From the IMG/VR virus record IMGVR_UViG_3300035501_000524: DNA of 47,727 nt; one strand, 5' to 3'. A program made the position numbers and the translations under genes. Shown piece after piece: positions 191-30,177 of the stretch. Positions within the stretch are counted from its first letter, which is position 1; every line of letters begins with the position of its first letter. The notes below the pieces were generated by a model, which worked only from the letters and a program-made list of their open reading frames with translations, had not been told where the DNA came from and did not search any database. Origin of the DNA: a virus (lineage: Duplodnaviria > Heunggongvirae > Uroviricota > Caudoviricetes).

Positions 191-3100
191 ATGATATATA
201 ATGATAGAAAGGAGAATAAAATCCGTATGACAGATAAGACTAAATTTAGACCGGTCAATGGTACAGAAGAGCAAATCTTAAGCGCTTCTAAAACGCCAGG
301 ATATGTTTATTTTGCAACTGATACCGGAAGAATTTATTTAGACTTAGATCAAAATACTCGTATTTCTATGGGCGGTAGTGGTGTTGCTTTATTATATGGT
401 AAAGCTGATACCATCAGTCCAGATGAACAAGGTTTTTACACTTTGAGTTTTGATGATCTTGAGGATGATGTAACTCCAAAAGAAGGAGATCTTATTTTAA
501 ATAAAGATGGAATCTTCTATCGAGTTATGGAAGCGGATTCTGATTCACGCTCTATGCTTTGCGCAATTCTCGCAGTAAGCGGAAGTGGTGGATCAGGTGG
601 CGGTGGTACATCTAGTTTATCTAAGAAAATTGGTATTACCATTCAGCCATTGTCAACAAGTAATCTAATCAATGGTCAGTCTTTTGGAGTATACTTTACT
701 GCAAATTCTGGAGTTGATTATGATGGCTCTGTTATGGATGATAAATTAATAGTTCATTGGACTCTATATGAAAAAGTTGATTCAACTTATATTAAATATA
801 GTGAAGGCCAAATGGATGTTAACTCTGGTGAATTAACAGAATTTGAGTTAGGCGAAAAATTAAGAGAATCAACATCATCTCGTTTAACTATGTATGCTAG
901 TGGTATTAATAGTGGTGAGAGTGCTTCTAAGAGCGTTGATGTTGTTACTGGACAGTTATCATTAACTCAGTCTCAAAATTTCTCAGCAACCGCACGTTAT
1001 ACACCAGATAATGTTAAGTTACAGTGTAATGCAATCGGAAGTATGAATAAAATTCTTGATTTCTATTTTGATGGAACTTTAGTTGAATCTAAAAAATTAA
1101 CTTCTTCATCTGAAAACTTCCAGAGCTATACTGTAAGTTCTAGTTATGCAACACATGGTTATCATTCAGTTCGTATTGAATTATATCAAGCTATTGTCGT
1201 AAGTAATACATGGTCTAGAGGATTGATGGTAGATCCAATAGAATTTGAAATTGGTGTATTCGCAACAGGTAATACAGATCCGGTAATTTGGTTGGGAACT
1301 TATAATGAAGAGTATTATAATTATGATACAATTCAAATTCCATTCTTGGTATACGATCCTTCAAGCACAGCCTCTGCGCACATCGTATTAAGAAAAAATG
1401 GTAAGGAAATCGCAAGTTCTCCTCGTGATATTGATACTACTACAATGAGTTCTTGGAATATCTTTGAAATTGCAGATGCAGATTTGGATATGGTAAATAG
1501 ATATTCTATTTCTTGCGGCGACATAACAAGAGATATTACCTTTACTGTAGTTCAAGACCCGAACAGAACAATGGAAGTTGTTAAACAAGAGTCCTTGAAA
1601 TTGAACTTTGACGCAAAGGGTCGTTCAAATAGTGAATCCGCAGTTAATCGTGAAACATGGACTACTGATGATGGTTCTATTAAAGCTACATTTAAGGATT
1701 TCAACTGGTATAATAATGGTTGGGTTCTTGATGATGACAATAATACTTGTTTACGTATTAGTAATGGAGCAGAATTTTCTATTCCTATTGGAACATTAAC
1801 TTATGGTTCAACTGATATTTCTAAACAGTCTAACTCTATTGAAATTCAATTCAGAGTTCGTAATGTACAGGATTACTCAAGCTTGATTCATAACGTAACA
1901 CGTTACAATGGTGATGATAAATTCTATACAGCATTTAAAGCGCAGTCTTACTATACTAACTACGATTCATTCCTTCATTATTACCTTCCTCTTTACAATG
2001 CAACTGTAAGTGAAGATCAACAGGTAGATTATGATGATCTTGAGTTTAGTAGAGTTCAGAAAGAGATTAGCTTAAATCGAGTTGCTTGTAGTTATTACTC
2101 AGGTGACGAAAGTGGAGCTGTAGGAATCTGTCTTGGACCGCAAGATGCATTCTTTTCTAATGGAACAAATACTGTAAACGTAAGTTATGTTGAGGATCAG
2201 TTAATCAATATTTCTATGGTATACTCTCATGGTAGCGACCAGATGATGTATATTTATATTAATGGTGTTTTAACTGGTGTTATTAAATCAACAATCGGTC
2301 TATTCACAATTAACTCAAATAAGATTGTATTTAATTCTAATTATTGCGATATTGACTTATACAAAATTAGAGTTTATAATACAGACTTAAATGTAAATGA
2401 TATTGTTACTAACTACTCAGTAGATTTAAAAAATGTAACTATTTACGATCAAAATAAACTTGCAGAAGAAAATACTGCAATTCATGAATATCAGTTTAAA
2501 TATGATAACATGATTAAGTATAATGATGAACATCCAAGTGCTCCTTTAATGCCTTATATCATTTTTGATACAAGTGCAACTGGAAATAATGATAAGCTTT
2601 CTTATTCTAAGAAAACTAAAATTAATATTGGTGTTGAATTCATTAATACCGGTCTTGATAGAGCATATGCTAATGGCGAGTTAGAGAAATATGCTATTGA
2701 AGATGGTTTATGTACCGCTAATTCTAGCGCAGAAGAAAAAGAAGCAGCTGTTAAGAAATATTATCAGCATCATTGCCCAAGCTTTATTGGCGATAATATC
2801 AGCATGGCTGTTCAAGGAACATCTTCAGAGTTCTATCCAAGACGTAACTATAAATTAAAGACTAAGAATACAGATAAAGATGGTGTAGATAGAATTCATA
2901 TCTTCTTACATAAAGGTCCATTCGCTGCAGATTATGCAGAGGATTCAGAAAATACTCGTCAGAAATTCTTCTACATGGATAACTATACAAATGGTACAAC
3001 TAAGTTCACTATGAAGATTGACTACATGGAGTCTTCTGGAACTTATAATATGGGCTTTACAAGCTTAATTCATAATGGTTATTCTAAACATCCTTTAAAA

Positions 3101-6100
3101 GATTACAACGATGCGGGAGCATTCCAGAAGCAAGTTGAAAATTATGATAAAGCTACAAGCTTTAAAGAGGGTGAAACATATTATCAGTATGATGCATCTT
3201 CTAATAAGTATTCTAAGACAAAAGATACAGTAGATGCAAATAATGTTACTGACTATTATGTATCTAATCCAAAATATGAGGATTATACATTTAAAGACCT
3301 TGATGACTATAGAACCTGTATTACAGGTTATAGAGTTTTAGCTTTCCATAAGAAATCAGATGGAACTTATCAGTACATTGGTATGTATAACATGCTTCTG
3401 GATAAAGGATCTGATGAAGTTTATGGATTTAAACCAGATAAAACTCTTACACAGAAATTCTTAAAGAATAAAGCAATTAGTAAGAAAGCTGAATGTTGGG
3501 AATTTGAAAATAACGCTCGTGGATTTTGTTCATTTAGAGATCCTTGGGGAAGAAGAGAATTATCCTTCAAAGCTCCAGAAAGCGCAGGAAGTAGTGGTTT
3601 CACCTCAGCTAATGCGCCAGTAGTTGCTGATAGTTTTGAGTATCGTTATAATGCAAATGATGACATTCTTGACATTCTCGTTGCTTTAAGTTCTGCATCT
3701 GATGAAGACGAAAAAACTGTTAATGAGAGCTTCCCAGATTATTACATTAAACAGGATCCAACAGATGGACAAGAATTACTATTAGACTTATACAGCAACT
3801 GGGAAAAAGCTGTTAAATGGGTATGGTCAACCTGTACTGAAAATGTAAAAAGCCAAGGCAATTATGTTGAAACTAACGTAGGAAAACAGCTCTATCAGCC
3901 TAATGAATTCTATATCTATGATGAGACAGAAAACGATTACGTTCTTTCAACTGCAAAAGAATGTGATGATTCTTTAACATATTATTCACAAGCTAAAGAT
4001 GGATCTTATGTAAACGCGTATGCTTGTTCATCAGAGAATTTATTCAAAGTAAGTACATTCTATACAATCGTTAATGGTGAATACGTATTATCTGGTGAAA
4101 CTAGTGAATTTGATGAATCTGAAACATATTACAAGTTAATTGACTTCAGTGATGAAGAATTAGCTAAAATAGCAGATAGACTTGTTGAAGTTTGCAATGA
4201 TGAAATATTTGATCCAAGCCAAACATATTATGCCTATGATGGTTCTGTAACTGGTTCTGACTTAGCTACTAAGGTAGTTAAAGTAACAGAAGACACTTAT
4301 GAGCCTGGTAAGTATTATATCGGAAAAGACGTTACTTATGGTAAACATGTTTATAAGTTTGATACAAAAGAATATCGTGCAGATAAATTCGTTTATGAAT
4401 TATCTTCTCACTTTGATATTGAATATGTAGCAACTTATTTCGTAGCTACTGAGGTTATGGAATGTTATGACTCTCGTGGAAAGAACTGTATGATGGCTTC
4501 TTGGGGCCCGCAAAAAGACGGTGGAGATTACATCTGGTATCCAATTTTCTATGATCTTGATACTCAGTTAGGTATTAACAATACTGGTATTCCTTCATTT
4601 GAATATAACGTGGATGCAACAGAAGATGGAAACTTCTCTACATCAGATAGTGTCCTTTGGAATAACTTCTATAAATATTTCAAAGATTCTTATATCGTTA
4701 TGAAATATAAACATCTTAAAGGTGTTACAGATGGAGTTTCTTGGACAAAGCTTGAGCACGCACCATTCTATAGCGTAGATAGAATTGAGAATTGGTATAC
4801 AACTAATCCTTATTGTAGTGAAGAAGTTATGACAACTAATAACAATGCTAAGAAAGTTCAAAGTTTTGCTAAATTAGGAGAAAGACCTTTAATTGCTGTT
4901 AATTTAGATGAATATTATAAGTATATTACAATTTGTAACAGTTCTAGTTATCAGAATGGAGTTACAGGTCATATTGGCACGGCTGGGGATTATACATACG
5001 ATGCGAATGGAACTTACTTCTACGCATTACAAGGAGATCGTTCTTTAAGTAGACAGCAGTTCTTAACAAATCGTTTGGAATATATTGATTCTTGGTTGAA
5101 TCAAGGTAACTATCAACGTGGAGGCGCGAACCGTGTCCGCGGACGTGTGGCCGCAAATAATTCGAATAAAACTTCTGATATTTGGGTTGAAACAGATAAA
5201 GAGCCATACTACAAAGAAGATGGAACGAAGTCTAATTTATTCGATGCTGAGTATTGGTTGAATTTAACACCAATTCGTTCTTCTTATGTAACAGTAAGTG
5301 ATGATAATGAAGCTTATCCTTCTCAGAAGTATGATGGTGTCAATCCAGTCAAATTTAACATTGATGCTATTGAGCAAGGTGTTCGTAAGAGCGCCAACTA
5401 CCCAGAGCAGTTGTTATATATTTACGGATTAAATCAGATGGCTGATTTAGGTGACATGAGTAACCTATATTGGCAAGAGTTTGAAATTTCCGGAAATGCT
5501 TCTAAATTAACTAGACTTTTACTAGGATATGATGGAGTAGATGAAAGCGGAAATAAATGGAAAAATAATAATGTTAACCAGTTCAGTATTCCTTCTAGTA
5601 AATCCTCTTCTGGAATGCCATTATTGAAAGAAGCTAACTTTAGTAATATTTCAGTAAATGGTCAATCTCCAGTCCTTGATTTTACAAGTTGTGAAAAAAT
5701 GCAGAACTTCCGTGCTACTGGATCAAACTTCACAGAGATTAAATTTGCTGAGGGCGTAGCTTTACATACATTATATTTACCAAGTTCAATTACTACTTTA
5801 AGCTTAACTGAAGCAAACTTGTTAACTAATTTAATTACCGATTATCAAGTTCCACAGAGAGATGATAATGGTAATTTAGTAGCTGAAAAAGGTTTATATA
5901 TACAAGGAATGTTTGAGGGTCAAGGAGATACAGTAATTGATAATTTAAGTTTACTTGGTGGAAATCTTGGATACGATAGTTATAAATTACTTGCAAAATA
6001 CTTCGAGCTTCGACGAAGACAGACAGCTTCTATTAGTAAAATTGCAATGACTAATGTTGATTGGTGTCCATATAAGCAGTTAGTTGAAGGAGATTCTTAT

Positions 6101-7741
6101 GATATTTCTAATTCTGACGCTTATTATATTGATAATGGTCATTACGGATTTGATAAATACACTTATAATGCAGCAACATTCCAGACTCAAGTTTTGAATG
6201 GAGAACTTTATAAGCTTGATTCTTCAATTCCAGAAGAAGATATTAATCAAATCGCTGATGTTGAGATGTTAAGAACATTTATTGATAATGGATTATATAC
6301 TGGAACCGCAGAAGGAAGTACAATTCCGAACTTGACAGGTATTATTTATGTTAATAATGATACCGCTTTAGGAGAGCTCTTTATTAAAGATACTCTTGTA
6401 AAAGCATTCCCGAGTTTAACATTCTTCTTTAAGAATGTAAATAAAGCTTACTCCGCTAAATTCATTATCCAAGAGGATGATGGAACTTACACTTATGTAG
6501 ATCATGCAGATACGAAAGTAACTGAGAAGAGTGTTCAGAAGGTTTCTTCTGGAGAATTCTTTACAAATCCATATAAGATGTACAATCCAGTAAAAGATAA
6601 CTACGATTTCCATGGTTGGTCAACAACTAATGATACAACAGGTTTAATTTCAAGTGCAGATGCTACTGCGGAAGAACAGCAAGCTGCTTGGGATGAGTTA
6701 ACATTAGACAACGATGTATATGATTATACATTCTATGCAGTGTTTACTATTCATAAATGGAATATTAGATTCTTATCTGGTACAAAAACTGATAATTTAA
6801 CATTAATTGCTGAATATCAAGTTCCTCATGGAGATGTTCTTTATACTCCAAGTGTATTGGCTACATTGGATGAAAGTGCATTACCTGATGATCAAAGATA
6901 TAAGTTCTTAGGTTATACTCAGAATTTAGCAAATGTAATTGCGGCAAGCGCAGATACAGCTAAATTAACATCTGTAACTAATATGCTTTCAACACAGGAT
7001 ACAGATTTTTATGCAGTATTTACTCAAGAATCAGTATTTACTTCTACTACAGATTTTAAATACTTAAAGTTCTCAAAAACATCCTATACAGATCCATATG
7101 ATAGCTCTTATAGTGCGACTGGATACATGGTAAGACCAGCTGATGGATATTCATTATCTGGTAAAATTACTTTGCCAACTGAATATGATGGTCAACCAAT
7201 CATTAGTGTTGGAGGATTTGGCTCAATGGATATTACTCATGTTTATTGGTATGGAACTCCACAGGTAGTATCTATAGGTAGTAACGCATTTAATGGCTGT
7301 AAAAAATTAGTTTATTTCCAGTTCCCAGGGACAGTCAGATTTATTACTGGTTCTGCATTCGTAGGGTGCAATCAGTTAAAATTATTTGATTTTGGAAATA
7401 TTTTATGTTATATTGGTGAACTTGCTTTCAATATGACATTTAACTCTTCTACAAAAACTGAAAAACTTAGAATTCCAGGTACAGTAAGAGAAATTGGTAA
7501 CTATGCTTTTGCTTACAATGATAATATGAGAGGTATTGCAACTCTTCAGTTCGGAGGACCTGGAGATCCAACTCAAATTACTGCTATTGGTGGTAACTCT
7601 AAAGCTTTTATTCAAAATAGCGGAGCTAAAATTGAGAACGTTGTAGTTTATACATCTGATGGAACTATTTCTGATAATTTAATGAGCTTGATCAATAAGG
7701 GTGTTGAGTATGAAGGAACTATTAGCGTAGTTATGGCTTAA
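191..7741 (+). CDS. Giant multidomain virion/tail-associated protein: LamG-like region, CotH-like atypical kinase, LRR region, InlB-B-repeat-like units and C-terminal BspA-type LRRs (true start probably ATG 227)
   Basis: QGTSSEFYPRRNYKLK, YIGMYNM, YDSRGKN and WYPIFYDLDTQLG resemble CotH kinase motifs; DIDLYKIRVYNTDL is LamG-like; VVSIGSNAFNGCKKL, VRFITGSAFVGCNQL and VREIGNYAFAYN are LRR_5-like; AAGGAG RBS lies just upstream of ATG 227. Confidence 0.75.
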   Translation: MIYNDRKENKIRMTDKTKFRPVNGTEEQILSASKTPGYVYFATDTGRIYLDLDQNTRISMGGSGVALLYGKADTISPDEQGFYTLSFDDLEDDVTPKEGDLILNKDGIFYRVMEADSDSRSMLCAILAVSGSGGSGGGGTSSLSKKIGITIQPLSTSNLINGQSFGVYFTANSGVDYDGSVMDDKLIVHWTLYEKVDSTYIKYSEGQMDVNSGELTEFELGEKLRESTSSRLTMYASGINSGESASKSVDVVTGQLSLTQSQNFSATARYTPDNVKLQCNAIGSMNKILDFYFDGTLVESKKLTSSSENFQSYTVSSSYATHGYHSVRIELYQAIVVSNTWSRGLMVDPIEFEIGVFATGNTDPVIWLGTYNEEYYNYDTIQIPFLVYDPSSTASAHIVLRKNGKEIASSPRDIDTTTMSSWNIFEIADADLDMVNRYSISCGDITRDITFTVVQDPNRTMEVVKQESLKLNFDAKGRSNSESAVNRETWTTDDGSIKATFKDFNWYNNGWVLDDDNNTCLRISNGAEFSIPIGTLTYGSTDISKQSNSIEIQFRVRNVQDYSSLIHNVTRYNGDDKFYTAFKAQSYYTNYDSFLHYYLPLYNATVSEDQQVDYDDLEFSRVQKEISLNRVACSYYSGDESGAVGICLGPQDAFFSNGTNTVNVSYVEDQLINISMVYSHGSDQMMYIYINGVLTGVIKSTIGLFTINSNKIVFNSNYCDIDLYKIRVYNTDLNVNDIVTNYSVDLKNVTIYDQNKLAEENTAIHEYQFKYDNMIKYNDEHPSAPLMPYIIFDTSATGNNDKLSYSKKTKINIGVEFINTGLDRAYANGELEKYAIEDGLCTANSSAEEKEAAVKKYYQHHCPSFIGDNISMAVQGTSSEFYPRRNYKLKTKNTDKDGVDRIHIFLHKGPFAADYAEDSENTRQKFFYMDNYTNGTTKFTMKIDYMESSGTYNMGFTSLIHNGYSKHPLKDYNDAGAFQKQVENYDKATSFKEGETYYQYDASSNKYSKTKDTVDANNVTDYYVSNPKYEDYTFKDLDDYRTCITGYRVLAFHKKSDGTYQYIGMYNMLLDKGSDEVYGFKPDKTLTQKFLKNKAISKKAECWEFENNARGFCSFRDPWGRRELSFKAPESAGSSGFTSANAPVVADSFEYRYNANDDILDILVALSSASDEDEKTVNESFPDYYIKQDPTDGQELLLDLYSNWEKAVKWVWSTCTENVKSQGNYVETNVGKQLYQPNEFYIYDETENDYVLSTAKECDDSLTYYSQAKDGSYVNAYACSSENLFKVSTFYTIVNGEYVLSGETSEFDESETYYKLIDFSDEELAKIADRLVEVCNDEIFDPSQTYYAYDGSVTGSDLATKVVKVTEDTYEPGKYYIGKDVTYGKHVYKFDTKEYRADKFVYELSSHFDIEYVATYFVATEVMECYDSRGKNCMMASWGPQKDGGDYIWYPIFYDLDTQLGINNTGIPSFEYNVDATEDGNFSTSDSVLWNNFYKYFKDSYIVMKYKHLKGVTDGVSWTKLEHAPFYSVDRIENWYTTNPYCSEEVMTTNNNAKKVQSFAKLGERPLIAVNLDEYYKYITICNSSSYQNGVTGHIGTAGDYTYDANGTYFYALQGDRSLSRQQFLTNRLEYIDSWLNQGNYQRGGANRVRGRVAANNSNKTSDIWVETDKEPYYKEDGTKSNLFDAEYWLNLTPIRSSYVTVSDDNEAYPSQKYDGVNPVKFNIDAIEQGVRKSANYPEQLLYIYGLNQMADLGDMSNLYWQEFEISGNASKLTRLLLGYDGVDESGNKWKNNNVNQFSIPSSKSSSGMPLLKEANFSNISVNGQSPVLDFTSCEKMQNFRATGSNFTEIKFAEGVALHTLYLPSSITTLSLTEANLLTNLITDYQVPQRDDNGNLVAEKGLYIQGMFEGQGDTVIDNLSLLGGNLGYDSYKLLAKYFELRRRQTASISKIAMTNVDWCPYKQLVEGDSYDISNSDAYYIDNGHYGFDKYTYNAATFQTQVLNGELYKLDSSIPEEDINQIADVEMLRTFIDNGLYTGTAEGSTIPNLTGIIYVNNDTALGELFIKDTLVKAFPSLTFFFKNVNKAYSAKFIIQEDDGTYTYVDHADTKVTEKSVQKVSSGEFFTNPYKMYNPVKDNYDFHGWSTTNDTTGLISSADATAEEQQAAWDELTLDNDVYDYTFYAVFTIHKWNIRFLSGTKTDNLTLIAEYQVPHGDVLYTPSVLATLDESALPDDQRYKFLGYTQNLANVIAASADTAKLTSVTNMLSTQDTDFYAVFTQESVFTSTTDFKYLKFSKTSYTDPYDSSYSATGYMVRPADGYSLSGKITLPTEYDGQPIISVGGFGSMDITHVYWYGTPQVVSIGSNAFNGCKKLVYFQFPGTVRFITGSAFVGCNQLKLFDFGNILCYIGELAFNMTFNSSTKTEKLRIPGTVREIGNYAFAYNDNMRGIATLQFGGPGDPTQITAIGGNSKAFIQNSGAKIENVVVYTSDGTISDNLMSLINKGVEYEGTISVVMA

Positions 7742-8071: not shown

Positions 8072-10003
8072 ATGATTACATATGTTAATGCAGCAAATTC
8101 AGATAAGTATTCTGCTATATTTGAAAAAGCTTTTAATGATTTGCAGACGCATGATGCATCAGGTAAAGAAGTTGAAAAAGGTAGTTCTTCAGCAGTAATT
8201 CCTGATAGTGCGATCGGAACTGGAGTCTTTGATGAAGATGGCCAAGAAATTAAAATGCAATCTCTTAGCTCTCTTGATGAATACTTTTCTTATATCGTTG
8301 AATTAAACAACATTAGTCGTAGATATACTATTCTTCCATTAGACGAAGATGTTTTTGAAATTAACGCAAATGATAGAAGTATTACAGTACCAGCTTCTTT
8401 TAAGAAAAATGGTATTAGTGTACAAGGAGATGAAGTTTCTGAAATCATTTATTTCCGTATTGCTAGATTCTACGACTCTACTGACTTAGATACAAAAGAT
8501 ATCTATATTCAGTGGAAATCTGCCGCACAGGACGAAGATGGTAATTTTATTGAAGGTGTTTCTGTTCCTTGGGTAAAGGATATTGAAAGTGATCCTGGCT
8601 ACATTATTTTCGGTTGGCCTTTATCTTCTAAAATTACCAAAGCCGCAGGTACAATTCAATTCGCTGTTCGTTTTTATAACTATGATAAAGATACTGATAC
8701 TCTTAATTATAGTTTATCAACATTGACTTGTTCAGCAACTATTAAGCCAGGCTTAGATTTTGATATTCCAGGAATTATTCTTGATGGAACTCAAATTGAT
8801 GATTCTACAACTCTATTACATGATAGACTTGTTGATTCTCAACTTGCTTCTGGAGCTGTTCAGGCTGAAAAACCGGAATTTATTAAGAATCTTGTTAAGA
8901 GACTTATTCTTGATGACAATGGACTTAAAGTTTATAGTGTTCAAGCTTATGCACCAGATGCAGGCCAATTAACTTACATTTGGAAGAAATATGATATTGA
9001 TACCAATGATAGAATTCTTGAAGAAGGTGCAATGCCTTATGAAATAACAATGTCTAAGATTTCAGCTGATGAAACAAGGGTAAAAGGAAAACTTTATTAT
9101 ACTCTAGTAAGTGGTTCTGATGGCGTGAATCCATCTTATCAGCTTTATACAGGTGATATCCCTTCAGAAGATCCGACACTTGACATTTATGAGAAATTCT
9201 CTACTGGTACTTTAAATTCTGTTGGTAAATATGTTGTTGTAGCTAAAAACCGTGTACGTCAAAGCACAGCTGAGACAGAAAGTGAAGTTTGTATTGTACC
9301 TCGTCCATCAAAAGTTAATATCAATAAAGATCTTAATGAAAGAGATTATCTCTCACCAGATGATTATGAAGCAGTATTAAGTGTATCAGCTAGCGTTGAG
9401 GATGAAGGAAAAATTACTTATCAATGGTTATACAAAGCTCCCGGCACAGATGAATTCGAGGAGATTGAAGGCGCAACTGAAGCGACTTATATCATCCAGG
9501 GTTCTGCAAATGAAAGCGAAGAAACTGGTGGCGAAGGTGATGGATTCTATAAAGTTATTGTAACTAATAATTTGAATAAAGAAATTGATTCTACTGATAG
9601 CGGAGTTTGTCGTGTAACTCATCCTGCAACTCAGTTAAATGTTCAAATTAATTCTGCACTTTCTAAACAGTACTTCTCATTAAGCGAAGTTCAGAAAAGT
9701 AATGGTTGCGTTATTGTAGCTAGCTGGCCAGAAGGAAGCGGAGAAGTTATTCAGAGACAGGATGAAGATTCTGTAACTTATCAATGGTATAAATATGTTA
9801 CTGATGGAAATGTATTTGAAGAGGATCTCCAGAAGTCTAATGAAGGAGAATACTATTTCCATGGTGACTCTAAGATTGAGGGCGCAACTGAAAAATCCTT
9901 CATTCCAGATGCACAAGGTTATTATTTCTGTGAAGTAACTAATACTTATAATAACACTCAGGCCAAGAGATGTTCTCCATTCTTTGGTATCGCTGACGTT
10001 TAA
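8072..10003 (+). CDS. BppU-like baseplate/tail protein with C-terminal Ig-like domains
   Basis: VQGDEVSEIIYFRIARFYDSTDL...IYIQW...IIFGWPLSSKIT..AGTIQFAVRF resembles the BppU N-terminal domain; repeated ITYQW...IEGATE...GxYxVxVTN are Ig-like strand patterns. Confidence 0.7.
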   Translation: MITYVNAANSDKYSAIFEKAFNDLQTHDASGKEVEKGSSSAVIPDSAIGTGVFDEDGQEIKMQSLSSLDEYFSYIVELNNISRRYTILPLDEDVFEINANDRSITVPASFKKNGISVQGDEVSEIIYFRIARFYDSTDLDTKDIYIQWKSAAQDEDGNFIEGVSVPWVKDIESDPGYIIFGWPLSSKITKAAGTIQFAVRFYNYDKDTDTLNYSLSTLTCSATIKPGLDFDIPGIILDGTQIDDSTTLLHDRLVDSQLASGAVQAEKPEFIKNLVKRLILDDNGLKVYSVQAYAPDAGQLTYIWKKYDIDTNDRILEEGAMPYEITMSKISADETRVKGKLYYTLVSGSDGVNPSYQLYTGDIPSEDPTLDIYEKFSTGTLNSVGKYVVVAKNRVRQSTAETESEVCIVPRPSKVNINKDLNERDYLSPDDYEAVLSVSASVEDEGKITYQWLYKAPGTDEFEEIEGATEATYIIQGSANESEETGGEGDGFYKVIVTNNLNKEIDSTDSGVCRVTHPATQLNVQINSALSKQYFSLSEVQKSNGCVIVASWPEGSGEVIQRQDEDSVTYQWYKYVTDGNVFEEDLQKSNEGEYYFHGDSKIEGATEKSFIPDAQGYYFCEVTNTYNNTQAKRCSPFFGIADV

Positions 10004-15615: not shown

Positions 15616-16026
15616 ATGGAAACTTTTTTACAAATATTAACAGATATTTTTGAAGTGTGTATTATTCCTTTACTTGGTATTTTAACTACATATTTAGTTA
15701 AATATATCCAAGCAAAGAATGAAGCTTTTAATGCAGAGTCAGATTCTGCATTAGCTAAAAAGTACACAGATATGCTAACAGATACAATTACTACTTGTGT
15801 AATTGCAACGAATCAAACTTATGTAGAAACTTTAAAACAGCAAGGCTCATTTGATAAGACTGCGCAAGAAGCAGCTTTTCAAGAAACCTTAACTGAAGTT
15901 TTAAAAATTTTAAATGATGATGCTAAAACTTATTTAAAAGAAGCATATGGCGATTTAGATGCTTATATCATTAATATGATTGAAGCAACAGTAAATGAAC
16001 AAAAAACTAAAAAGGGAACCTCTTAA
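15616..16026 (+). CDS. Holin-like membrane protein (LL-H-like)
   Basis: Single N-terminal hydrophobic helix (IIPLLGILTTYLVKYI), helical soluble tail with basic C-terminus, position after tail genes. Confidence 0.6.
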   Translation: METFLQILTDIFEVCIIPLLGILTTYLVKYIQAKNEAFNAESDSALAKKYTDMLTDTITTCVIATNQTYVETLKQQGSFDKTAQEAAFQETLTEVLKILNDDAKTYLKEAYGDLDAYIINMIEATVNEQKTKKGTS

Positions 16027-16047
16027 TTGAGGTTCCCTTATTTTTTT
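16012..16047 (+). terminator. Rho-independent terminator ending the tail/holin unit
   Basis: 11-bp stem AAGGGAACCTC/GAGGTTCCCTT plus T7. Confidence 0.9.
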
Positions 16048-16139: not shown

Positions 16140-16282
16140 AATTTTATAAAAGTATTTAAAATTTTTGAGAAAAGTTTATGCAACATTTCAGGGTTTTATT
16201 TTAAAATTTTGCCCATTCAAAAATCAATATATAATGTAAGAAAGAGAGAAAAATTTTCTTACAGAAAGGAAGTATACTTTTT

Positions 16283-16741
16283 ATGTATCCTACAAATAAT
16301 AGCTATTATAACCAAATGCAACCTCAAACTCAATACTATCAAAATCAGATGCAGAGTCCTTCTTCAATGATGCGTCCTCAGATGATGGCGACTGTAAAAG
16401 GTAGACCTGTATCATCTATTGAAGAAGCGAGAGCTGCTACAATAGATTTTGATGGTTCGATTTTTTATTTCCCAGATTTGGCAAATAAAAAAATTTACAC
16501 AAAGCAGATAAATATGGATGGCACAGCCACACTAAACATGTACGAATTGAAAGAAATGCCTGTTGAACCACCGTTGAATAGTTCTGCTTATGTAACACGA
16601 GAAGAATTTGAGATAGCTATGACTCAATTAAAAAGTTTTTTAAGTCAACCTTCTACGGCATCGACGACCCCGATGAGCGAGCCGCAACCGCAAAAAGCTG
16701 AACAAGAAAAATCAAAAGAGCCATTAAACTTAAACTTTTAA
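16283..16741 (+). CDS. Cassette gene 1: hypothetical protein with Q/M/Y-rich low-complexity N-terminus and a compact central domain
   Basis: AAGGA RBS; NQMQPQTQYYQNQMQSPSSMMRPQMM followed by VKGRPVSSIEEARAATIDFDGSIFYF. Confidence 0.85.
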   Translation: MYPTNNSYYNQMQPQTQYYQNQMQSPSSMMRPQMMATVKGRPVSSIEEARAATIDFDGSIFYFPDLANKKIYTKQINMDGTATLNMYELKEMPVEPPLNSSAYVTREEFEIAMTQLKSFLSQPSTASTTPMSEPQPQKAEQEKSKEPLNLNF

Positions 16742-16753
16742 GGAGGTAATATA

Positions 16754-16993
16754 ATGAATATTAATCCTATGCAGTTTATTCAATTAATTAGAAATGGCGG
16801 AAACCCACAACAATTAATGATGAATCTTTTAAGCCAAATGCAGGGAACTCCTATGGGTAACAACCTCTTAAGTATGGCGCAAGCTAATGATACAAAAGGT
16901 ATTGAACAATTAGCTAGAAATTTATGCCAACAGAGAGGTGTAGATTTTGACCAAGAATTTAGTAATTTTAAACAAATGCTTGGCCTCAGATAA
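16754..16993 (+). CDS. Cassette gene 2: small Q/M/N-rich helical hypothetical protein
   Basis: AAGGAGG RBS; MNINPMQFIQLIRNGGNPQQLMMNLL. Confidence 0.85.
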   Translation: MNINPMQFIQLIRNGGNPQQLMMNLLSQMQGTPMGNNLLSMAQANDTKGIEQLARNLCQQRGVDFDQEFSNFKQMLGLR

Positions 16994-17013
16994 TTTTAAA
17001 AGGAGGAACCAAT

Positions 17014-17730
17014 ATGTTTAATCAAGGTTCAGGATATTCATTATCAGATATTGCAGCTGCTTCTGGAAATCGTGGAGAAGCTGGCTGGACAGATGGCATG
17101 GGAGCTTGGTGGATTATAATCCTATTCTTATTCGTCTTTATGGGCGGAGGTTGGGGAGGCAACTGGGGTAATGGAGCTAATTCAGCTGCAACTCAGGGCG
17201 CCTTAACTAGAGCAGATTTAAGTCAAGACTTAAACTTCCAGAATGTAGAAAATGGTGTTAGAGGAGTTCAGCAAGGACTTTGTGATGGATTCTATACTAA
17301 CAACACAACTCTATTGACCAATTTTGGTAACGTGCAACGTGATTTGTGTACAGGATTTAGTTCTGTTGCACAAGGTTTTAATACAGTAAACGCTAACTTA
17401 GCTGATAATCGTTATGCAATGCAGTCTTGTTGCTGTGATACAAACCGCAATATAGATGCAGTTAGATATGATAATTCTCGAAATACTTGTGAAATAACTC
17501 AAGCAATTAGAGAAGAAGCTGAACAAACAAGAGCTTTAATTAATGCTAACACAATGCAAGAGTTACGTGATAGATTAGAAGCTAAGAATAATGAGCTACA
17601 GTCAGCTAACTTCCAGTTATCTCAATGCGCTCAGAACGCTTACTTAGTAAATGAACTTCGTCCATGTCCAATTCCTGCATATTTGACGGGTAGTCCATAT
17701 GCAGCTTATTCTAATGGATGTAGTTGTTAA
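17014..17730 (+). CDS. Cassette gene 3: Gly/Trp-rich hydrophobic N-terminus, coiled-coil, Cys-rich (SCCCD, C-terminal GCSC)
   Basis: AGGAGG RBS; AWWIIILFLFVFMGGGWGGNWG; helical heptad-like segment. Confidence 0.85.
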   Translation: MFNQGSGYSLSDIAAASGNRGEAGWTDGMGAWWIIILFLFVFMGGGWGGNWGNGANSAATQGALTRADLSQDLNFQNVENGVRGVQQGLCDGFYTNNTTLLTNFGNVQRDLCTGFSSVAQGFNTVNANLADNRYAMQSCCCDTNRNIDAVRYDNSRNTCEITQAIREEAEQTRALINANTMQELRDRLEAKNNELQSANFQLSQCAQNAYLVNELRPCPIPAYLTGSPYAAYSNGCSC

Positions 17731-17757
17731 GTAAATAAGTAAAGGAGATTTGTATTT

Positions 17758-18177
17758 ATGGAAATTACTGCGACAACAGCTCAAACAGTAGCAGCTAATC
17801 AAGATATATTATTTACGAATACTGCGGTTGAAGGTAACTGCAGTATTCTCCATAGAAGTGGAAGCGGGCTTGTTAATTTGCGCGGTCTAACGCAACAATG
17901 CAGAGCTCGTTACAGAGTCACTTTTGGATGTAATATAGCAGTTCCAACAGGTGGCACAGCTGATTCAATCTCGGTAGCAATTACTATTGATGGAGAACCT
18001 ATTGCTTCTTCAATGATGATTTCTACTCCTGGAGCAGTTGATGATTATAATTCAGTATCTGGCGCAATTTTTATTGATGTCCCAAAAGGATGCTGCTCTC
18101 AAGTTAGTATTAAAAATACTTCAACACAATCTATCTTAGTTCAAAATGCTAATTTAATTGTTGAAAGGGTGGCGTAA
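17758..18177 (+). CDS. Cassette gene 4: Cys-containing beta-sandwich protein resembling the BclA C-terminal/C1q-TNF-like fold
   Basis: AAGGAG RBS; TTAQTVAANQDILF...YRVTFGCNIA...SVAITIDGEPI...VSIKNTS...NANLIVERV strand pattern. Confidence 0.75.
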   Translation: MEITATTAQTVAANQDILFTNTAVEGNCSILHRSGSGLVNLRGLTQQCRARYRVTFGCNIAVPTGGTADSISVAITIDGEPIASSMMISTPGAVDDYNSVSGAIFIDVPKGCCSQVSIKNTSTQSILVQNANLIVERVA

Positions 18178-18603
18178 ATGAAAGATCTTAAAAGAATGAA
18201 AAAAATGCTTATGGAACAAGTGGAAATGGAATTAGAAAATCCACAGTGCGCAGATACTAAAGAATTAGGCGAAGTTGTAGATATGATTAAAGATATTGCT
18301 GAAACAATGTATTATTGCAGCATTGTAAAAGCAATGGAAGAATCAGATTCAGAAGAAATTATGACGCATCATGATGCCTATCAACCGCACACAATGAAAG
18401 AAGATAGACCTATTGAAAAACATTATCACGAATATAAAGAAGTTAAAAAAATGAGTAATGACCCAATTCTTTCAATGCAACACCTTGAAGGCTATATCAA
18501 TGAGCTTCAAAAAGATGTAATGGAAATGGCATCCACTGCATCTCCAGAAGAAAAACAACTGCTACAAAAGAAGATAGCTGTACTTGCTTCTAAATTAGCA
18601 TAA
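18178..18603 (+). CDS. Cassette gene 5: helical, Met/Glu-rich hypothetical protein
   Basis: ATG directly follows the TAA of gene 4 (translational coupling); DTKELGEVVDMIKDIAETMYYC. Confidence 0.85.
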   Translation: MKDLKRMKKMLMEQVEMELENPQCADTKELGEVVDMIKDIAETMYYCSIVKAMEESDSEEIMTHHDAYQPHTMKEDRPIEKHYHEYKEVKKMSNDPILSMQHLEGYINELQKDVMEMASTASPEEKQLLQKKIAVLASKLA

Positions 18604-18644
18604 AAAAATAAGGGAAGAACTTTTATAGTTCTTCCCATTTTTTT
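18603..18644. terminator. Bidirectional terminator at the convergence of the + and - transcription units
   Basis: Stem GGGAAGAACT/AGTTCTTCCC with an A-run upstream and a T-run downstream. Confidence 0.85.
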
Positions 18645-18646
18645 GT

Positions 18647-19108
18647 TTATTCATCAGCTTCATCTGTAGTAACTGTTAAAGTCCTTTCAGCCTTCTTTTT
18701 GACTAAATTAAATAAACGATCTCCATTGTGATTACCACCTAACCCATTATAAGCATCATGATCATTATCAATTTCTTGATACTCTTCTAAAGAAATGTCA
18801 TGATTTTCATTAAGTAACATAATACATGCTTGTTTGAATTGACGCCCTTGAAGAGACAAAATTCCCTTCTTTAAACAATTCAATTCGTCTTTTAAGTCAT
18901 CAATCTCTCCCTGGAGAACCTTATCGTCATATTGAGACTGTTGATAACTATCTGATATCTCGGCTTTCAGTTTACTATAGAATTCATTTTGTTGAGCTTT
19001 TTGTTCTTTTTTTACTAACTCCGCATATCGTTTTAAGAAGATTCCTCCACCCGTAACGATAAGTCCAAACAAAAACTCAATCCAATATTTCACAATAAAT
19101 TCTAACAT
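18647..19108 (-). CDS. Holin-like membrane protein
   Basis: N-terminal TM helix (YWIEFLFGLIVTGGGIFL), coiled-coil, C-terminal DAYNGLGGNHNG (YxxLGGN-type motif of gut-phage holin-like proteins). Confidence 0.6.
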   Translation of the reverse strand: MLEFIVKYWIEFLFGLIVTGGGIFLKRYAELVKKEQKAQQNEFYSKLKAEISDSYQQSQYDDKVLQGEIDDLKDELNCLKKGILSLQGRQFKQACIMLLNENHDISLEEYQEIDNDHDAYNGLGGNHNGDRLFNLVKKKAERTLTVTTDEADE

Positions 19109-24729: not shown

Positions 24730-27700
24730 TTACTCCTCTTCCAAATCACCTTGATATCTATGATCTCTTAATCGGATTCTTCCATCTTCATATATTTCAT
24801 CAATTTTGTATAACTGATGACCACCAGAAGATGCATATTTCTTAGAAATAAAATCATCTCCAGAGCGAATACCCATTACTACAATCATATTACCTCTATT
24901 AAACCAAGATTTTTCAACCACATGTTTTACTCCATCATCGCCTTTAATTGAAATTTGTTTATCAAATAAAGCAAAATATTCTTTTCTAAACTTAACATTT
25001 ACAACTCCAGAAGTGGTTAATAAGGTAACTGTACTCTTTGCTTTATTCTTAGCAATACATGTGCCGCAAATCTTATTTAATTTAAAGATGTTAATTGTCT
25101 TTCCACCTTTGGTGAAAGTTCTTTCAACTACTGGATTTTCTGGAAGCTTAAAGAAATCACTAAAACCATATAAAGTATTATTTACATGCGCTAATTCATG
25201 CTCGTGATAATAAAAACATAATGCTTCCATTTCCCATGCAGATATTGTTCCTTTGGCATATTTTTGCCAATCATCCATAAAGATTTTAGAATTAAGCTCA
25301 TTTAAAATGGCTTCTTTATCTGCGGCAATCCAAACTCTAAAGACGTCCATCCAACTCTGATAATATTTATCCCATGCTTTTACATCAAGATAATATCCTA
25401 ATCCATCACATGTAATTAAGTCATTCATTTCTATTTCAGATAAGAAATTAAAGGCTCTATCGTCAAGTGTATAATATGTCATAGCTTTATTTGGTCTACA
25501 CATTGCTTTTAAGTATCTATTAAATTCATAGATTCTTCTTGCCATAACTCTTTCATCTGTATCTTCTGGAAGAAGATTATGTCGAATCAAACCAGGAAGA
25601 TTCTGCAATGTAAGTCTCTTTTTCTTATCACATGTTTCCCAGATATACCATCCCATACACTGACGACGATCCATCATATCATCAAAAGCTCCACCTTTAA
25701 TAAGCGAAATCATTGCTTGCTTTCCGGGATGAACTTTATTTAAAAAGTCTCTAGGAGAAACATAAGGTCTATTCTTAATTGTCGCTTCAATTATATCATC
25801 ACCAACATTCAACATAGCTTTCATGCCATAAAGAATCCTATGATTTTCTGCATCTGGCTTAAATCCAAAATCTGAATGATTAATATTTACTAAACTAAGA
25901 TTAATACCAGCATTAATAATTTCACCCATAGCTTTTGCAATTTTACCATAATCAGTTTGTCCTGCATTTTCTGGATCAGTTGCGCCACTATTTACAATCA
26001 AACAAGCTGTGTTCCAATAAATAGGATCCCAGTTAGTTGCAATAAATAATGTCTGAACACCGATGAAAGAATAAGCTAATGCGTGTATGCATTATTATAA
26101 AAATAACTGACTATTTTTTACAGTCGTAGTAGTGAAGTTGGTAAGGCTTCTTGACTGCACACTATTTCCCAGAACGTATCAATAGTTCCAGTACTCCCGG
26201 TCTAATCCAGGATAGTCGATACAACATTTCAAGTTTAAAAGGTTTATTTTTTATTTTCTTAAAGGATAAGAAAGATTTTCTTTTTTATGCGCTCGTCCTG
26301 CATTAATATTTTTTACAGTTGAATAACTTTTATTCCATTTTATAGCAATTTTATTAAGAGATAAATCAGTTTCTAAAATATCTTTTATAATTCCATTTAC
26401 CCAAATTTGATTATTTTCCTTTCTACTTCCTTTATTACAAAGTGGATAAGTATCTTCTTCACTATAAAAATATTTTCCAGTATTTATCATTGATAAAAAA
26501 CCAGCGCTTTTAATATTAAAATCTTTTTGTATACTAGAATATTTTTCCCCTGATTTAATTCTATTTTTAATTTCTCTAATCTCTTTTTGAGAAAATCTGC
26601 TTTTAGCATTTTTCTTTAATGGATAATTAAAATCAGGATTATAAAAATTAGCTCCTGTATTAATATTAACTAAAAAAGTTCTTTTTAATTTTGGAGAATA
26701 AATTTTTTCGATATCATCATATTCTTCATCATTTATTAATCTCCTCTGAATATCTTTAATCTCTTCTCCTGTAAATAATTTAGAACGTTGCAATTTTTCT
26801 AAATAAGTTAATGGAGGTTTTGAACATCCATCTCCACCTTTAGTTAAGTTATATCCATTTTCAGTAGTTAAAGAGTGAAAATGTTCAATAAAATAAATTT
26901 CTCTATCATTTATAAAATCTTTTGATTCTCCATCTGCAATTTCTTCTAAAACTTCATATGAAAAATTATTCATTCCATATTTCCTAATTGCGCAATGAAA
27001 AGGTAAATAATATCCATTACTTTTAATATTAAAAGCTTCACTTTTATGCCCATTAAATCTTTTTTGCAAATCATTTGTTTGTCCAATATAAATCTTTCCA
27101 TTTATCTTATTGGTATATTTATAAATATAATACATATTTCTCCCTCCTCTCTGTGGATATTTGAAAATTTTAATACCTCTTTTAAACTGATTTGTCACGA
27201 GATTTTACCCTCGTTAGCAATTAATCATTGATTTTACCAGAATCAATTTTCAATTAATTACCCCGATGATGAATCGGTTAAGTGTGTAAGCGCCATTTAC
27301 ACAACGCTGAATGAATAACCCATCTGTGGACCTGCACCATATTTCCAGATATATTCTCCCAATTTTTTGGAAGTCGCCTTAGATAAAACTTTTGCTTTCA
27401 ATTCTGGAATCTTTGACATCTGCTTCTTACCAACAATTTTACGAGCCGCATTTGCTTCACCAAGAGAAAAACCGCAAATATCTTTATCCATTAACATTCT
27501 CATTAATTGCTCCTGGCTTGGTGGAACTCCATATGATTGTTTAAAATAAGGTTCAATAGTTTTTTGCTCTTCTTTTGTTAGACCAAAATTATCCATTTCT
27601 TTATACCATAAGCTAATATCTTTCTTATACTTACAGTATTTTACCATTGGGCGTTCCTCACCTTCTTCTCCAGTGAGTCGCATAAGACCATTCGCATCTG

Positions 27701-30177
27701 CCATTTCAAGCACATTCTGCGGTTTAATCATTTTCGCTGCTTGGGCTCCAACCTGTGAATCAAACTGAAATGTATTAATTACAGATACATTACTAAGAGC
27801 ATCCCAAATTTTTTGATCCTGTAGAGGAAGAACATTTGGATGAAAATACTTATCATATACTTCACGTAATTTTAACTCTGGATCAATTAAATTATCAGCC
27901 TGAAGTAATTGAATTGTTTGAACTAATTTATCCTGAACCTCAGTTACAAGAAAATCATATTTTGTTAAGCCCATATACTCAGCATTATGAAGATCAAACT
28001 GAGTAATAACCTCTCCTTTTGGAGTTTTCATAAAGGCGCTATGCTCAAATGGGTCACCATCAAAAAGAATAACTCCAGAAGCATGAGAAGAACGCTTATT
28101 TACAAGACCTTCAATAGACATAATAATATCCAATAAACCTGGATAATTATTTACTTCACGCACAAATACAGAAATTGGTCTTCTATTTTTTTCTGGATTA
28201 CCATTAACAACATCTTTAATTGGCCATAAAAATCCACGCTCTTCTGGAATTAAAGATGACATATACTGAGCTTCATCAATATCAATTCCTTCTGGATAAT
28301 CCTCAGATCTATATCCACGACAAGCGGTTAATACAGCAGATTTAGTTCCTTCTGTTCCAAAAGTTGCAATAAGAGTACAACCAAGTGCTTTCTTTGCCCA
28401 TTCCGCAATTCCTTCTTTAAGCATTGCGCTTCTTTCTTCTCTAATTCTTTGAAGAATTAAAGGTCTCTTAGATGGACATATATCAATATCAATATCCTTT
28501 TATTGGACTATCTCTTTCACAATAATCTACTGAGAGTTATTACTTCGATTATTGCTAGAATGCGCTACGGGACAGTGCATCTCCATCCCTCTCAAAACTT
28601 TTATAAAAAGTTTTATTTAGTCTCTACACTCCAATAAATTTTATTAAAGCACGGTATTGCAAAGTCCAACCATATTTCAGGCCACTCGTTCTCTTAGTCA
28701 GCTGATTCGTGTTTATATTTTTTTTGATAAACCTTATTTTGCTGATACCGTTAGCATAATTTTTTTTTAATTACACACCCTTTAGCAAGGTTCACATTCT
28801 TTATTTACAACTCGGCAATATCAATATTAGACTACCGAGTTCGACTCTCTCATCATTAAGATAACGAAAGAACGGAAGATCCCATTCAATAGGATCAAGC
28901 TGAGTAATACCCATAAGATAATGATTTAATGCGGCACATGAAGAACCACGACCTGCGCCAACCATCGAACCACAATCCCAAATCATATCAATATAATGTT
29001 GTAAAGTATTCGGATAACGAAACATATTCGTTTCAAGTTTTTCACTAATTACAGTTTTAACTCTAGCTTCTTCTTCAAGTTCTGTGATATATCTATTATC
29101 TGTAATTAGATTTTTTTCTTCCAAAGATTCAAGACACTGATTTACCCAATATCTATCTTGGTCATCATCAGAGTGCGCCAATCGAGTTAAGTTTGGACAA
29201 GACTCGCTATCAATACTCCATGGAATATTTTTAGGATATTTTTTAACTTCTACTCTTGGAATATCCTGCTTATGAAAAAGAGAATACTGTTCAATTTTAT
29301 CTTGCATTTCAAGAGTATTATCTAAAATTTTATCTACAAAACCATATGGAAAACAAGGGGATAATAATTCTTCAATTTCTTCTGAATCCATTAAATGTGC
29401 AAATTCATAAAAAGAATCAATTTCACGCTCTCCATTTTTAGAATTAAGATAACCTTTATGTACAGCTCGATCTTCTTTTGTAAGATAATGAGCATCAGTA
29501 CCAACAACCATTTTAATTCCAAACATTTGGGCAATTTGGTATAATTTCATATTGACGGTCATCTGATCTTCAGCAGTTGAAGGCGCGCACTCAATATAAA
29601 AATCATCACCAAATAAGTTCAAGCAATATAAAATAAAATCTTGAACTTTATCCATATAGAAATTATAAGAATTAATATCATTAACTTTTTTAGATTCCTC
29701 AGCTAATAATGTATTGCTTGATAACTCACCGCCAATACAAGCTGTGGTTGCTATGACATGACCTTTATACTGCTGGATAATATCACTTAATTCATCTTTT
29801 GTAGTTGGAACTCTTTCCATTCCTCTATCAGAGTAAGAATAATACCAAGCTGTAGAGCTTAATTCTTTTAAAGCTCTATATCCAATTTCATCTTTTGCAA
29901 TAAGAATGAAATGATAATATTTCTGACCATTTTGTCTTTCATCAACAAGATAGATTTCATTTCCTAAAGCAACTTTAAAATCTTTGTTTTGAATTTTTTC
30001 AAGATGTTGCAGAGCGGAAACATGAGCAGATAAACATTCATGATCTGTAATTGCAATGCCAGAAAGCCCTAATTCAATCGCTTTATCAATTAGGGCTTCT
30101 GGTCTATTAATGCAATCAAGAAGTCTAATGTTAGAATACATTGTATGTGAATGACAATTAAAATAACTTCTTCTCAT
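24730..30177 (-). CDS. dnaE: DNA polymerase III alpha (DnaE-type, PHP domain), spliced: complement(join 28834..30177, 27304..28496, 24730..26089), 1298 aa
   Basis: HSHTMYS PHP motif; VGAGRGSS; splicing restores RYLNDERVELG|DIDID and GYSFSV|IHALAYS; exon lengths sum to 3897 nt (in frame). Confidence 0.93.
26090..27303 (-). ncRNA. Group I intron (dnaE intron 2, 1214 nt) carrying a homing endonuclease ORF
   Basis: 5' exon AGCGU pairs with IGS GCGCU (U.G at the splice site); terminal G at 26090; P7 GACUA/UAGUC (GUAUCGACUA...AAAUAGUCAG). Confidence 0.9.
26251..27135 (-). CDS. Intron-encoded GIY-YIG homing endonuclease with tandem C-terminal HTH-like modules (start re-called at ATG 27135)
   Basis: YIYKYTNKINGKIYIGQT...KRFNGH...EIYFI...NGYNLT; GGAGGG RBS; lies inside the intron. 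Confidence 0.9.
   Translation of the reverse strand: MYYIYKYTNKINGKIYIGQTNDLQKRFNGHKSEAFNIKSNGYYLPFHCAIRKYGMNNFSYEVLEEIADGESKDFINDREIYFIEHFHSLTTENGYNLTKGGDGCSKPPLTYLEKLQRSKLFTGEEIKDIQRRLINDEEYDDIEKIYSPKLKRTFLVNINTGANFYNPDFNYPLKKNAKSRFSQKEIREIKNRIKSGEKYSSIQKDFNIKSAGFLSMINTGKYFYSEEDTYPLCNKGSRKENNQIWVNGIIKDILETDLSLNKIAIKWNKSYSTVKNINAGRAHKKENLSYPLRK
28497..28833 (-). ncRNA. ORF-less group I intron (dnaE intron 1, 337 nt)
   Basis: 5' exon CUCGGU pairs with IGS GCCGAG; terminal G at 28497; GUGUAGAGACUA and GAGAUAGUCC core elements; AUGCUAACGG P-like element. Confidence 0.92.

Follow-up and report, generated by a model that had tools for sequence, protein, structure and literature searches.

A conserved gene cassette of gut-anaerobe viruses with a C1q-like knob gene and a possible role as a stalk-and-knob fibre

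C1q domains top collagen or coiled-coil stalks in BclA, in C1q and in viral fibres. Among spore proteins the jelly roll is found in the C-terminal domain (CTD) of BclA and F-BclA (PF18573; 1wck, 2z5w, 9h38) and, as a stand-alone domain, in BxpB/ExsFA of the Bacillus exosporium (8d02, 7r1m). Here we describe five co-oriented genes, g1 to g5, in a 47,727-nucleotide stretch (the window) of a phage genome (Caudoviricetes; IMG/VR record IMGVR_UViG_3300035501_000524). An initial annotation, made from the sequence, had likened these genes to spore-coat and exosporium systems. We find that g1-g4 form a unit shared by viruses of gut anaerobes, that g4 has the C1q fold and that the unit is dispensable in culture. 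Tentatively, and as a possibility rather than a probability, we propose that the cassette builds a late, optional, membrane-anchored stalk-and-knob fibre that would aid the adhesion or survival of progeny after lysis. The cassette as a system is apparently new; the fold of g4 is already known.

How closely does g4 resemble the spore proteins? Its AlphaFold2 (AF2) model, with a predicted local distance difference test score (pLDDT) of 95.8, is a ten-stranded jelly-roll β sandwich of the C1q/TNF type. The best Foldseek match is the F-BclA CTD 9h38 (E = 1.5e-7, template-modelling (TM) score 0.75); further matches are BxpB 8d02, ExsFA 7r1m and BclA 1wck, and then TNF ligands and cyanophage tail fibres. 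A profile match also reaches the fold (E = 3.3e-5), and PF18573 (BclA_C) matches 14 of 91 g4 relatives (best E = 3e-11), this g4 not being one of them. The C1q/BclA fold predicted by the initial annotation is thus confirmed. With the exosporium proteins g4 shares the jelly roll (TM 0.72-0.77) and, with BxpB/ExsFA, the stand-alone form. Unlike them it is phage-borne, 12-15% identical and without a collagen stalk; a scan of g1-g5 for the collagen-like GXX repeat found none. Unlike BclA, too, it would pair with a coiled-coil protein that has a hydrophobic segment; its hosts are mostly non-sporulating, and in some loci another family takes its place or the gene is missing. Viral fibres, too, often have the C1q fold. 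From the fold one would expect g4 to be a homotrimer. A search for longer g4 fusions, itself a weak one, found none.

Is the cassette inherited as a unit? Scans of viral contigs returned 184 relatives with g3 as the query and 117 with g4. Many of them read TAG as Gln, so that under code 11 the genes go unseen. After recoding, the order 1-2-3-4 is kept in 56 of 57 non-redundant loci (g3 identity under 80%), as a co-conserved unit should, and it is seen again in prophages. A g3 profile finds 4191 clusters at 50% identity; a family of more than 4,000 such clusters has as yet no Pfam entry. Two families occur in slot 4: one is the C1q type; the other, an alternative β-rich type, is that of C. perfringens and Bacteroidota phages. 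The two do not align; their folds may or may not differ. The content of slot 5 varies: g5, a distant g5-like family, DUF7841 or ferritin-like proteins, the ferritin-like or rubrerythrin-like genes accounting for 12 of the 57 loci. An M78-like HExxH (metalloprotease-like) protein often follows the slot-5 gene. A search via RuvC for loss of the cassette in close relatives returned only near-identical genomes. One 1.2-Mb genome (G786) holds three separate copies of the cassette on different contigs (L200, L207, L209).

The core gene is g3. An acidic N-terminal tail leads to a single, N-terminal hydrophobic segment (about residues 32-44), set in a Gly/Trp-rich uncharged run; there follow a hendecad coiled coil, the CCC motif (139-141), a second coiled coil and a tail that carries PxPAY and a terminal CxC. 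The Gly/Trp-rich segment, coiled coil and cysteine clusters that had been read from this gene are all present. Among its relatives the hydrophobic core has a median of 11 residues within an uncharged run of about 29. In 149 diverse relatives CCC, Ser-Gln-x-x-Gln, PxPAY and the terminal Cys are near-invariant; a weak Baculo_PEP_C match (E = 6e-4) in one of the 149 is likely a generic coiled-coil match. The hydropathy of the helices repeats with a period of 3.64, and the CCC-to-tail spacings of 75, 82, 86, 93, 97 and 104 correspond to length steps of 7 and 4. Period and steps together indicate, at the level of sequence, a continuous 11-residue (hendecad) coiled coil of free length. Group I introns lie within g3 in L036 (5310-5562, at the CCC codons) and L190 (1119-1538), and in the cultured phage CPQ4 a 1-kb insert splits g3 at about the same place. 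Introns at or near CCC, or elsewhere within g3, suggest that the gene has been under long-term selection, against drift. In L230 (2100-3134) an intron-sized insert with an open reading frame (ORF) sits inside g3, at or near the CCC codons; the phages with such insertions are unrelated to one another.

Does the tail of g3 bear the product of slot 4? All 19 distinct Pro-rich-tail variants of the Bacteroidota-type g3 have the alternative β gene in their locus. The archaeal-virus type has neither the tail nor any slot-4 gene, and the same is true of L206. We take this co-occurrence as a lead for a g3-g4 partnership, not as proof, since it reflects just two or three independent losses. A complex prediction with three g4 chains and three g3 tails (135-238) scored 0.00, which speaks neither for nor against binding.

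The remaining products are less distinctive. g1 has a disordered Gln/Tyr/Met/Pro N-terminus, a compact α/β domain (about 38-90; AF2 pLDDT about 95) and a short coiled coil (106-121). Its domain resembles the collagen XV/XVIII trimerisation domain weakly (Z 3.5, and 3.2; root mean square deviation 4.5 over 51 of 53 residues), in a tie with SH2 and kinase fragments, and a Foldseek search gave no match. The small, Met/Gln-rich helical protein g2 has conserved Asn-Pro turns. Composition and turns fit an STI1-like chaperone domain, with no family or structure match, and g2 is possibly a chaperone for the hydrophobic segment of g3. g5 is an acidic, Met-rich helical protein. No significant PDB match came from profile searches with g1, g2, g5 or the alternative slot-4 family; ESM Atlas searches with g3 and g1 returned only unnamed viral clusters. 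Among the 179 ORFs of this phage, g1, g2 and g5 are Met-rich (96th-99th percentile) and g1 and g2 Gln-rich (99th percentile). Cys-richness is limited to g3 (10 Cys, 4.2%) and g4 (5 Cys, 3.6%), and g1 has none. The Met/Gln bias of g1 and g2 and the cysteines of g3 and g4 that the initial annotation had pointed to therefore stand; a Cys-rich character of the cassette beyond these two genes does not. Both g3 and g4 are poor in Lys/Arg relative to the phage's own proteome.

Is the cassette essential? Two C. perfringens phages, phiCP39-O and phiCP26F, match the carrier XP41-N3 at 90-97% identity on both flanks and lack 2.2 kb. The gap runs from upstream of g1 to the middle of the g5-like gene, the C-terminal half of which is retained. 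This remnant indicates, from the alignment, that the gap is a deletion from a carrier ancestor. g3 was not found in either genome, while three controls matched. Both phages were isolated in a screen for virulent phages (PMC3118219). As its deletion in these plaque-isolated phages shows, neither lysis nor virion assembly requires the cassette (g1-g4) in culture, which rules out an essential lysis or virion module. As had been supposed, no known role in the virion or in lysis was found for the products. The ferritin-like gene of the C. perfringens cassette (L228, 8210-8737) is kept in both phages despite the deletion of g1-g4.

Which hosts do the carriers infect? In 50,697 phage records the carriers are viruses of gut anaerobes, apart from one short weak match. 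They comprise C. perfringens siphoviruses, Butyrivibrio virus Ceridwen, Bacteroides phage C3_41T2LP, crAss-like phages and faecal metagenome phages; vir335 and vir215 have Methanomassiliicoccales hosts as given in their GenBank records. XP41-N3, HMD-PC1, CPD1, Ceridwen and C3_41T2LP are cultured. Butyrivibrio, Bacteroides and Methanomassiliicoccales archaea are not known to form endospores. That the cassette crosses viruses of Bacillota, Bacteroidota and (by record) archaea, all gut anaerobes, points to a pressure from the niche and not from the host envelope. In the two archaeal-virus loci (L173, L174; vir335, vir215) genes for host-type surface proteins with signal peptides come after g3; in vir215 g3 adjoins a reverse transcriptase and a tail-protein gene, an arrangement like that of a diversity-generating retroelement.

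Could the cassette nevertheless decorate the exosporium or coat of host endospores, and so help the phage to travel inside spores? The best matches of g4 are spore proteins, and some hosts, such as C. perfringens, sporulate. As a general role, however, this is largely refuted, and we consider it very improbable. Carriers with non-sporulating hosts, and viruses assigned to archaea, break the supposed correlation with spore formers; no Bacillus phage is a carrier. In sampled Clostridia and Bacilli genomes g3 occurs in about 2% (9 of 399 and 10 of 400), and the six bacterial contexts inspected all lie among phage genes (prophages). A g3 match was present in one of 72,556 plasmid records. The C1q gene, of a fold that viral fibres use as well, is swapped in some carriers for an unrelated-looking β protein. 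Searches of g1-g5 and their alignments against Pfam/NCBIfam gave no match to spore-coat families (ExsY/CotY/CotZ-like scaffold), a remote likeness being possible. The CotH-like kinase that had been held to fit a spore-coat theme is a weak match (E = 7.5e-4, below the Pfam cut-off) more than 11 kb upstream of the cassette. It occurs in 9 of 47 carrier genomes, all of them large related phages, and in none of the small ones; it does not travel with the cassette. Classing the cassette as an exosporium or spore-coat operon is rejected on the lack of a collagen stalk, on host range and on the unlinked CotH. The CotH-like region (about residues 1400-1510) lies in a 2516-residue protein (191-7741) with C-terminal BspA-type leucine-rich repeats and Listeria-Bacteroides repeats.

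When would the cassette be expressed? In unrelated phages it always occupies a late region or the end of one: it follows tail fibres or holins, lies beside lysins or is set between head genes. Upstream of g1, 18 of 35 relatives have a two-box promoter-like motif, against 1.7 in shuffles, and the same motif precedes structural genes in the window (91, 7960, 10672). Position and common motif together make late expression likely. In this phage the copy before g1 is above the 99.9th percentile of the genome, weak and not decisive by itself. The promoter model was seeded by eye, which makes its training scores circular and leaves the shuffle count as the sole test. The TAG share of Gln codons in recoded relatives (0.26 in g1 and g2, 0.06 in g3 and the holin) is no clean late-gene marker. 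A small sigma-70 region 4 helix-turn-helix (HTH) gene often lies just upstream of the cassette in temperate phages.

How might such a fibre be built and used? We envisage that the short hydrophobic segment of g3, with its Gly/Trp flanks, serves as an anchor in lipid and that g3 chains assemble into a long coiled-coil stalk of variable length; their Pro/Tyr/Cys tail would carry an exchangeable β-sandwich knob (g4 or the alternative family). The g1, g2 and slot-5 proteins may help to fold, hold or bundle the fibre. The cysteines of CCC and CxC would be reduced in the anoxic cell and, once it has lysed, could form cross-links or bind metal. On membrane remnants or vesicles such fibres might then tether progeny virions to mucus, to particles or to each other, or shield them in transit. 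A benefit of this kind after lysis (adhesion, clustering, protection) is suggested by the late position, by dispensability in culture and by confinement to gut anaerobes across three kinds of envelope. If g3 and g4 assemble, then anchor, length-variable coiled coil and tip are like those of YadA-type head-stalk-anchor adhesins and of C1q-headed viral fibres (cyanophage short tail fibre 8ke9). Unlike these, the cassette encodes stalk and head in separate genes, has a short N-terminal anchor and no β-barrel or signal peptide, and adds CCC/CxC and three or more extra conserved genes. The assembly-type role put forward in the initial annotation stands as a reasonable guess; of the forms that it listed, an occlusion-like shell or an intracellular condensate may also apply.

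Several observations weigh against a membrane-anchored fibre. The hydrophobic core of g3 is short, a 19-residue hydropathy of 1.6 being reached in only 53% of relatives, and it has no basic flank on either side, so that ordinary membrane insertion is not assured. No g3-g4 fusion protein was found, which is weak evidence. Monoderm, diderm and archaeal envelopes are hard to reconcile with one surface-displayed fibre; a cytoplasmic or membrane-free assembly fits as well. The ferritin-like and M78-like metalloprotease genes at and after slot 5 are not explained by a fibre. A membrane-free, occlusion-body-like matrix or shell in which virions are embedded, nucleated by the hydrophobic segment and hardened by air-triggered disulphides, would be independent of the host envelope and would suit a short, uncharged core without basic flanks, low-complexity g1 and g2, a near-invariant CCC, a stand-alone BxpB/ExsFA-like C1q protein and confinement to viruses of anaerobes. 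We nevertheless hold it to be rather unlikely. Cys-rich products are limited to two genes, the archaeal-virus forms lack both knob and CxC tail, no search returned a likeness to ExsY/CotY, polyhedrin or spheroidin, and such bodies are unreported in the searchable literature. There is a similarly modest chance that, in viruses of both gut bacteria and gut archaea, the progeny virions are bundled and protected on the way from host to host by one shared kind of air-hardened protein coat or fibre mesh. Just as speculatively, this coat or mesh could be the prokaryotic counterpart of insect-virus occlusion bodies, built in part from a spore-surface fold. The likeness to those bodies (polyhedrin, spheroidin, fusolin) is in proposed role only, namely late, dispensable in culture and serving survival between hosts; no sequence or fold link to the cassette was found.

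Might the products instead be carried on the virion, or act inside the cell? A minor, optional virion part, either a head or tail decoration or an ejected α-helical tube like phiX174 H that helps the phage to enter certain hosts, would accord with the position among structural genes. The hydrophobic N-terminal segment and Gln/Asn-rich hendecad helix of g3 are reminiscent of pilot proteins, and crAss-like homologues bear the RefSeq labels 'spike protein/glycoprotein' or 'outer capsid protein/viral fiber'. We think this unlikely: the carriers range from 30 to 190 kb with differing body plans, viable siphoviruses have the genes deleted, and the labels, left unexplained in the source paper (PMC7886860), probably come from generic coiled-coil matches. 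With phiX174 H and class I viral fusion proteins g3 shares a Gly/Trp-rich hydrophobic segment, then long helices and a hinge that bears cysteines. Unlike them, g3 has no C-terminal membrane anchor and is dispensable for infection in culture. Its matches to haemagglutinin (HA2) are not significant (E 0.5 or worse), and with its one hydrophobic segment at the N-terminus the candidacy of g3 as a class I fusion protein was rejected. An intracellular membrane effector (lysis tuning, superinfection block or counter-defence), to which holin or lysin genes often adjoining the cassette, dispensability on the laboratory host and the preceding HTH gene of many temperate phages would point, seems to us no likelier than a virion part. 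The cassette has its own putative promoter and terminators, lies away from lysis genes in L218, L219-L222 and vir215, and shows no lipoprotein or spanin signature; a C1q-type knob on an adjustable stalk better suits a structure that faces outwards. Quite improbable, in our judgement, is an iron or redox compartment made of a Cys-rich scaffold and ferritin-like partners, which would keep oxidative damage to progeny DNA low. The ferritin-like and rubrerythrin-like slot-5 genes, the CCC, CxC and further conserved cysteines, and the anaerobic hosts agree with it; the g5 of this copy is not ferritin-like, and the C. perfringens ferritin-like gene outlasted the loss of g1-g4.

Has the cassette been described before? 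No description was found in the literature, most subscription papers lying outside the search, and no Pfam/NCBIfam family covers g1-g5. The families themselves have been catalogued singly: g1 matches PHROG 21718, g3 matches 16490 and 9288, and g4 matches 20016, all of unknown function, and these families include the crAss-like RefSeq 'spike protein/glycoprotein' entries. They carry putative labels or none, and no system is described in the searchable papers. A stalk or shell role would correct the putative 'spike' and 'viral fiber' labels in crAss-like RefSeq genomes, and would bear on how phages of strict anaerobes survive and spread from one animal to the next. Function is testable, as the near-identical deletion relatives phiCP39-O and phiCP26F offer a natural comparison with cultured carriers.

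The window comes from a complete phage genome of 175,638 bases, which has direct terminal repeats, the standard code and 21 tRNAs. Fibre-like and adhesin-like genes and a holin make up its + arm, which ends with the five cassette genes; the - arm holds RuvC, dUTPase, anaerobic ribonucleotide reductase and DNA polymerase III genes. The features of the cassette and its borders are given in table 1. All five ORFs, a purine-rich ribosome site before each, and the direct abutment of the g5 start on the g4 stop (coupling) are as the initial annotation had described them, and so is the placement of the cassette between terminators, holin and strand switch. Terminator-like sites in the region number 6, against 1.6 ± 1.2 in shuffles. 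The holin is not beside the cassette in L219-L222 and many other loci.

Table 1. Positions of the cassette genes and bordering features in the window.
Feature	Position	Strand	Description
Holin	15616-16026	+	phrog_13712, E = 6e-30; neighbour, not a cassette member
Upstream intrinsic-terminator-like hairpin	16012-16039		11 pairs, 6 G-C; overlaps holin stop; usable in either direction
Two-box promoter-like motif	16163-16214	+	weak copy, upstream of g1
g1	16283-16741	+	152 aa; ORF as in the initial annotation
g2	16754-16993	+	79 aa; ORF as in the initial annotation
g3	17014-17730	+	238 aa; core gene
g4	17758-18177	+	139 aa; C1q/TNF-like jelly roll
g5	18178-18603	+	141 aa; variable slot
Downstream bidirectional terminator	18612-18636		at the strand switch

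An inverted repeat (16233-16263) lies just 5' of the g1 ribosome site and touches it; it could regulate translation. At the end of the - arm a 153-residue gene (18647-19108) encodes an N-terminal hydrophobic segment and a coiled coil. In recoded relatives the TAG share of Gln codons is 0.33 in this gene and 0.48 in RuvC; NrdD, NrdG and dUTPase are not TAG-rich. None of the 21 tRNAs of the present phage has a CTA anticodon, and most of its close relatives (L006-L010, L086-L160) read TAG as Gln. Elsewhere in the window a 643-residue protein (8072-10003) has weak Hoc-like head-decoration and Ig-like matches. The DNA polymerase III alpha gene (24730-30177) is spread over three or more ORFs, a GIY-YIG endonuclease (26251-27198) lying in between, and is probably intron-split.

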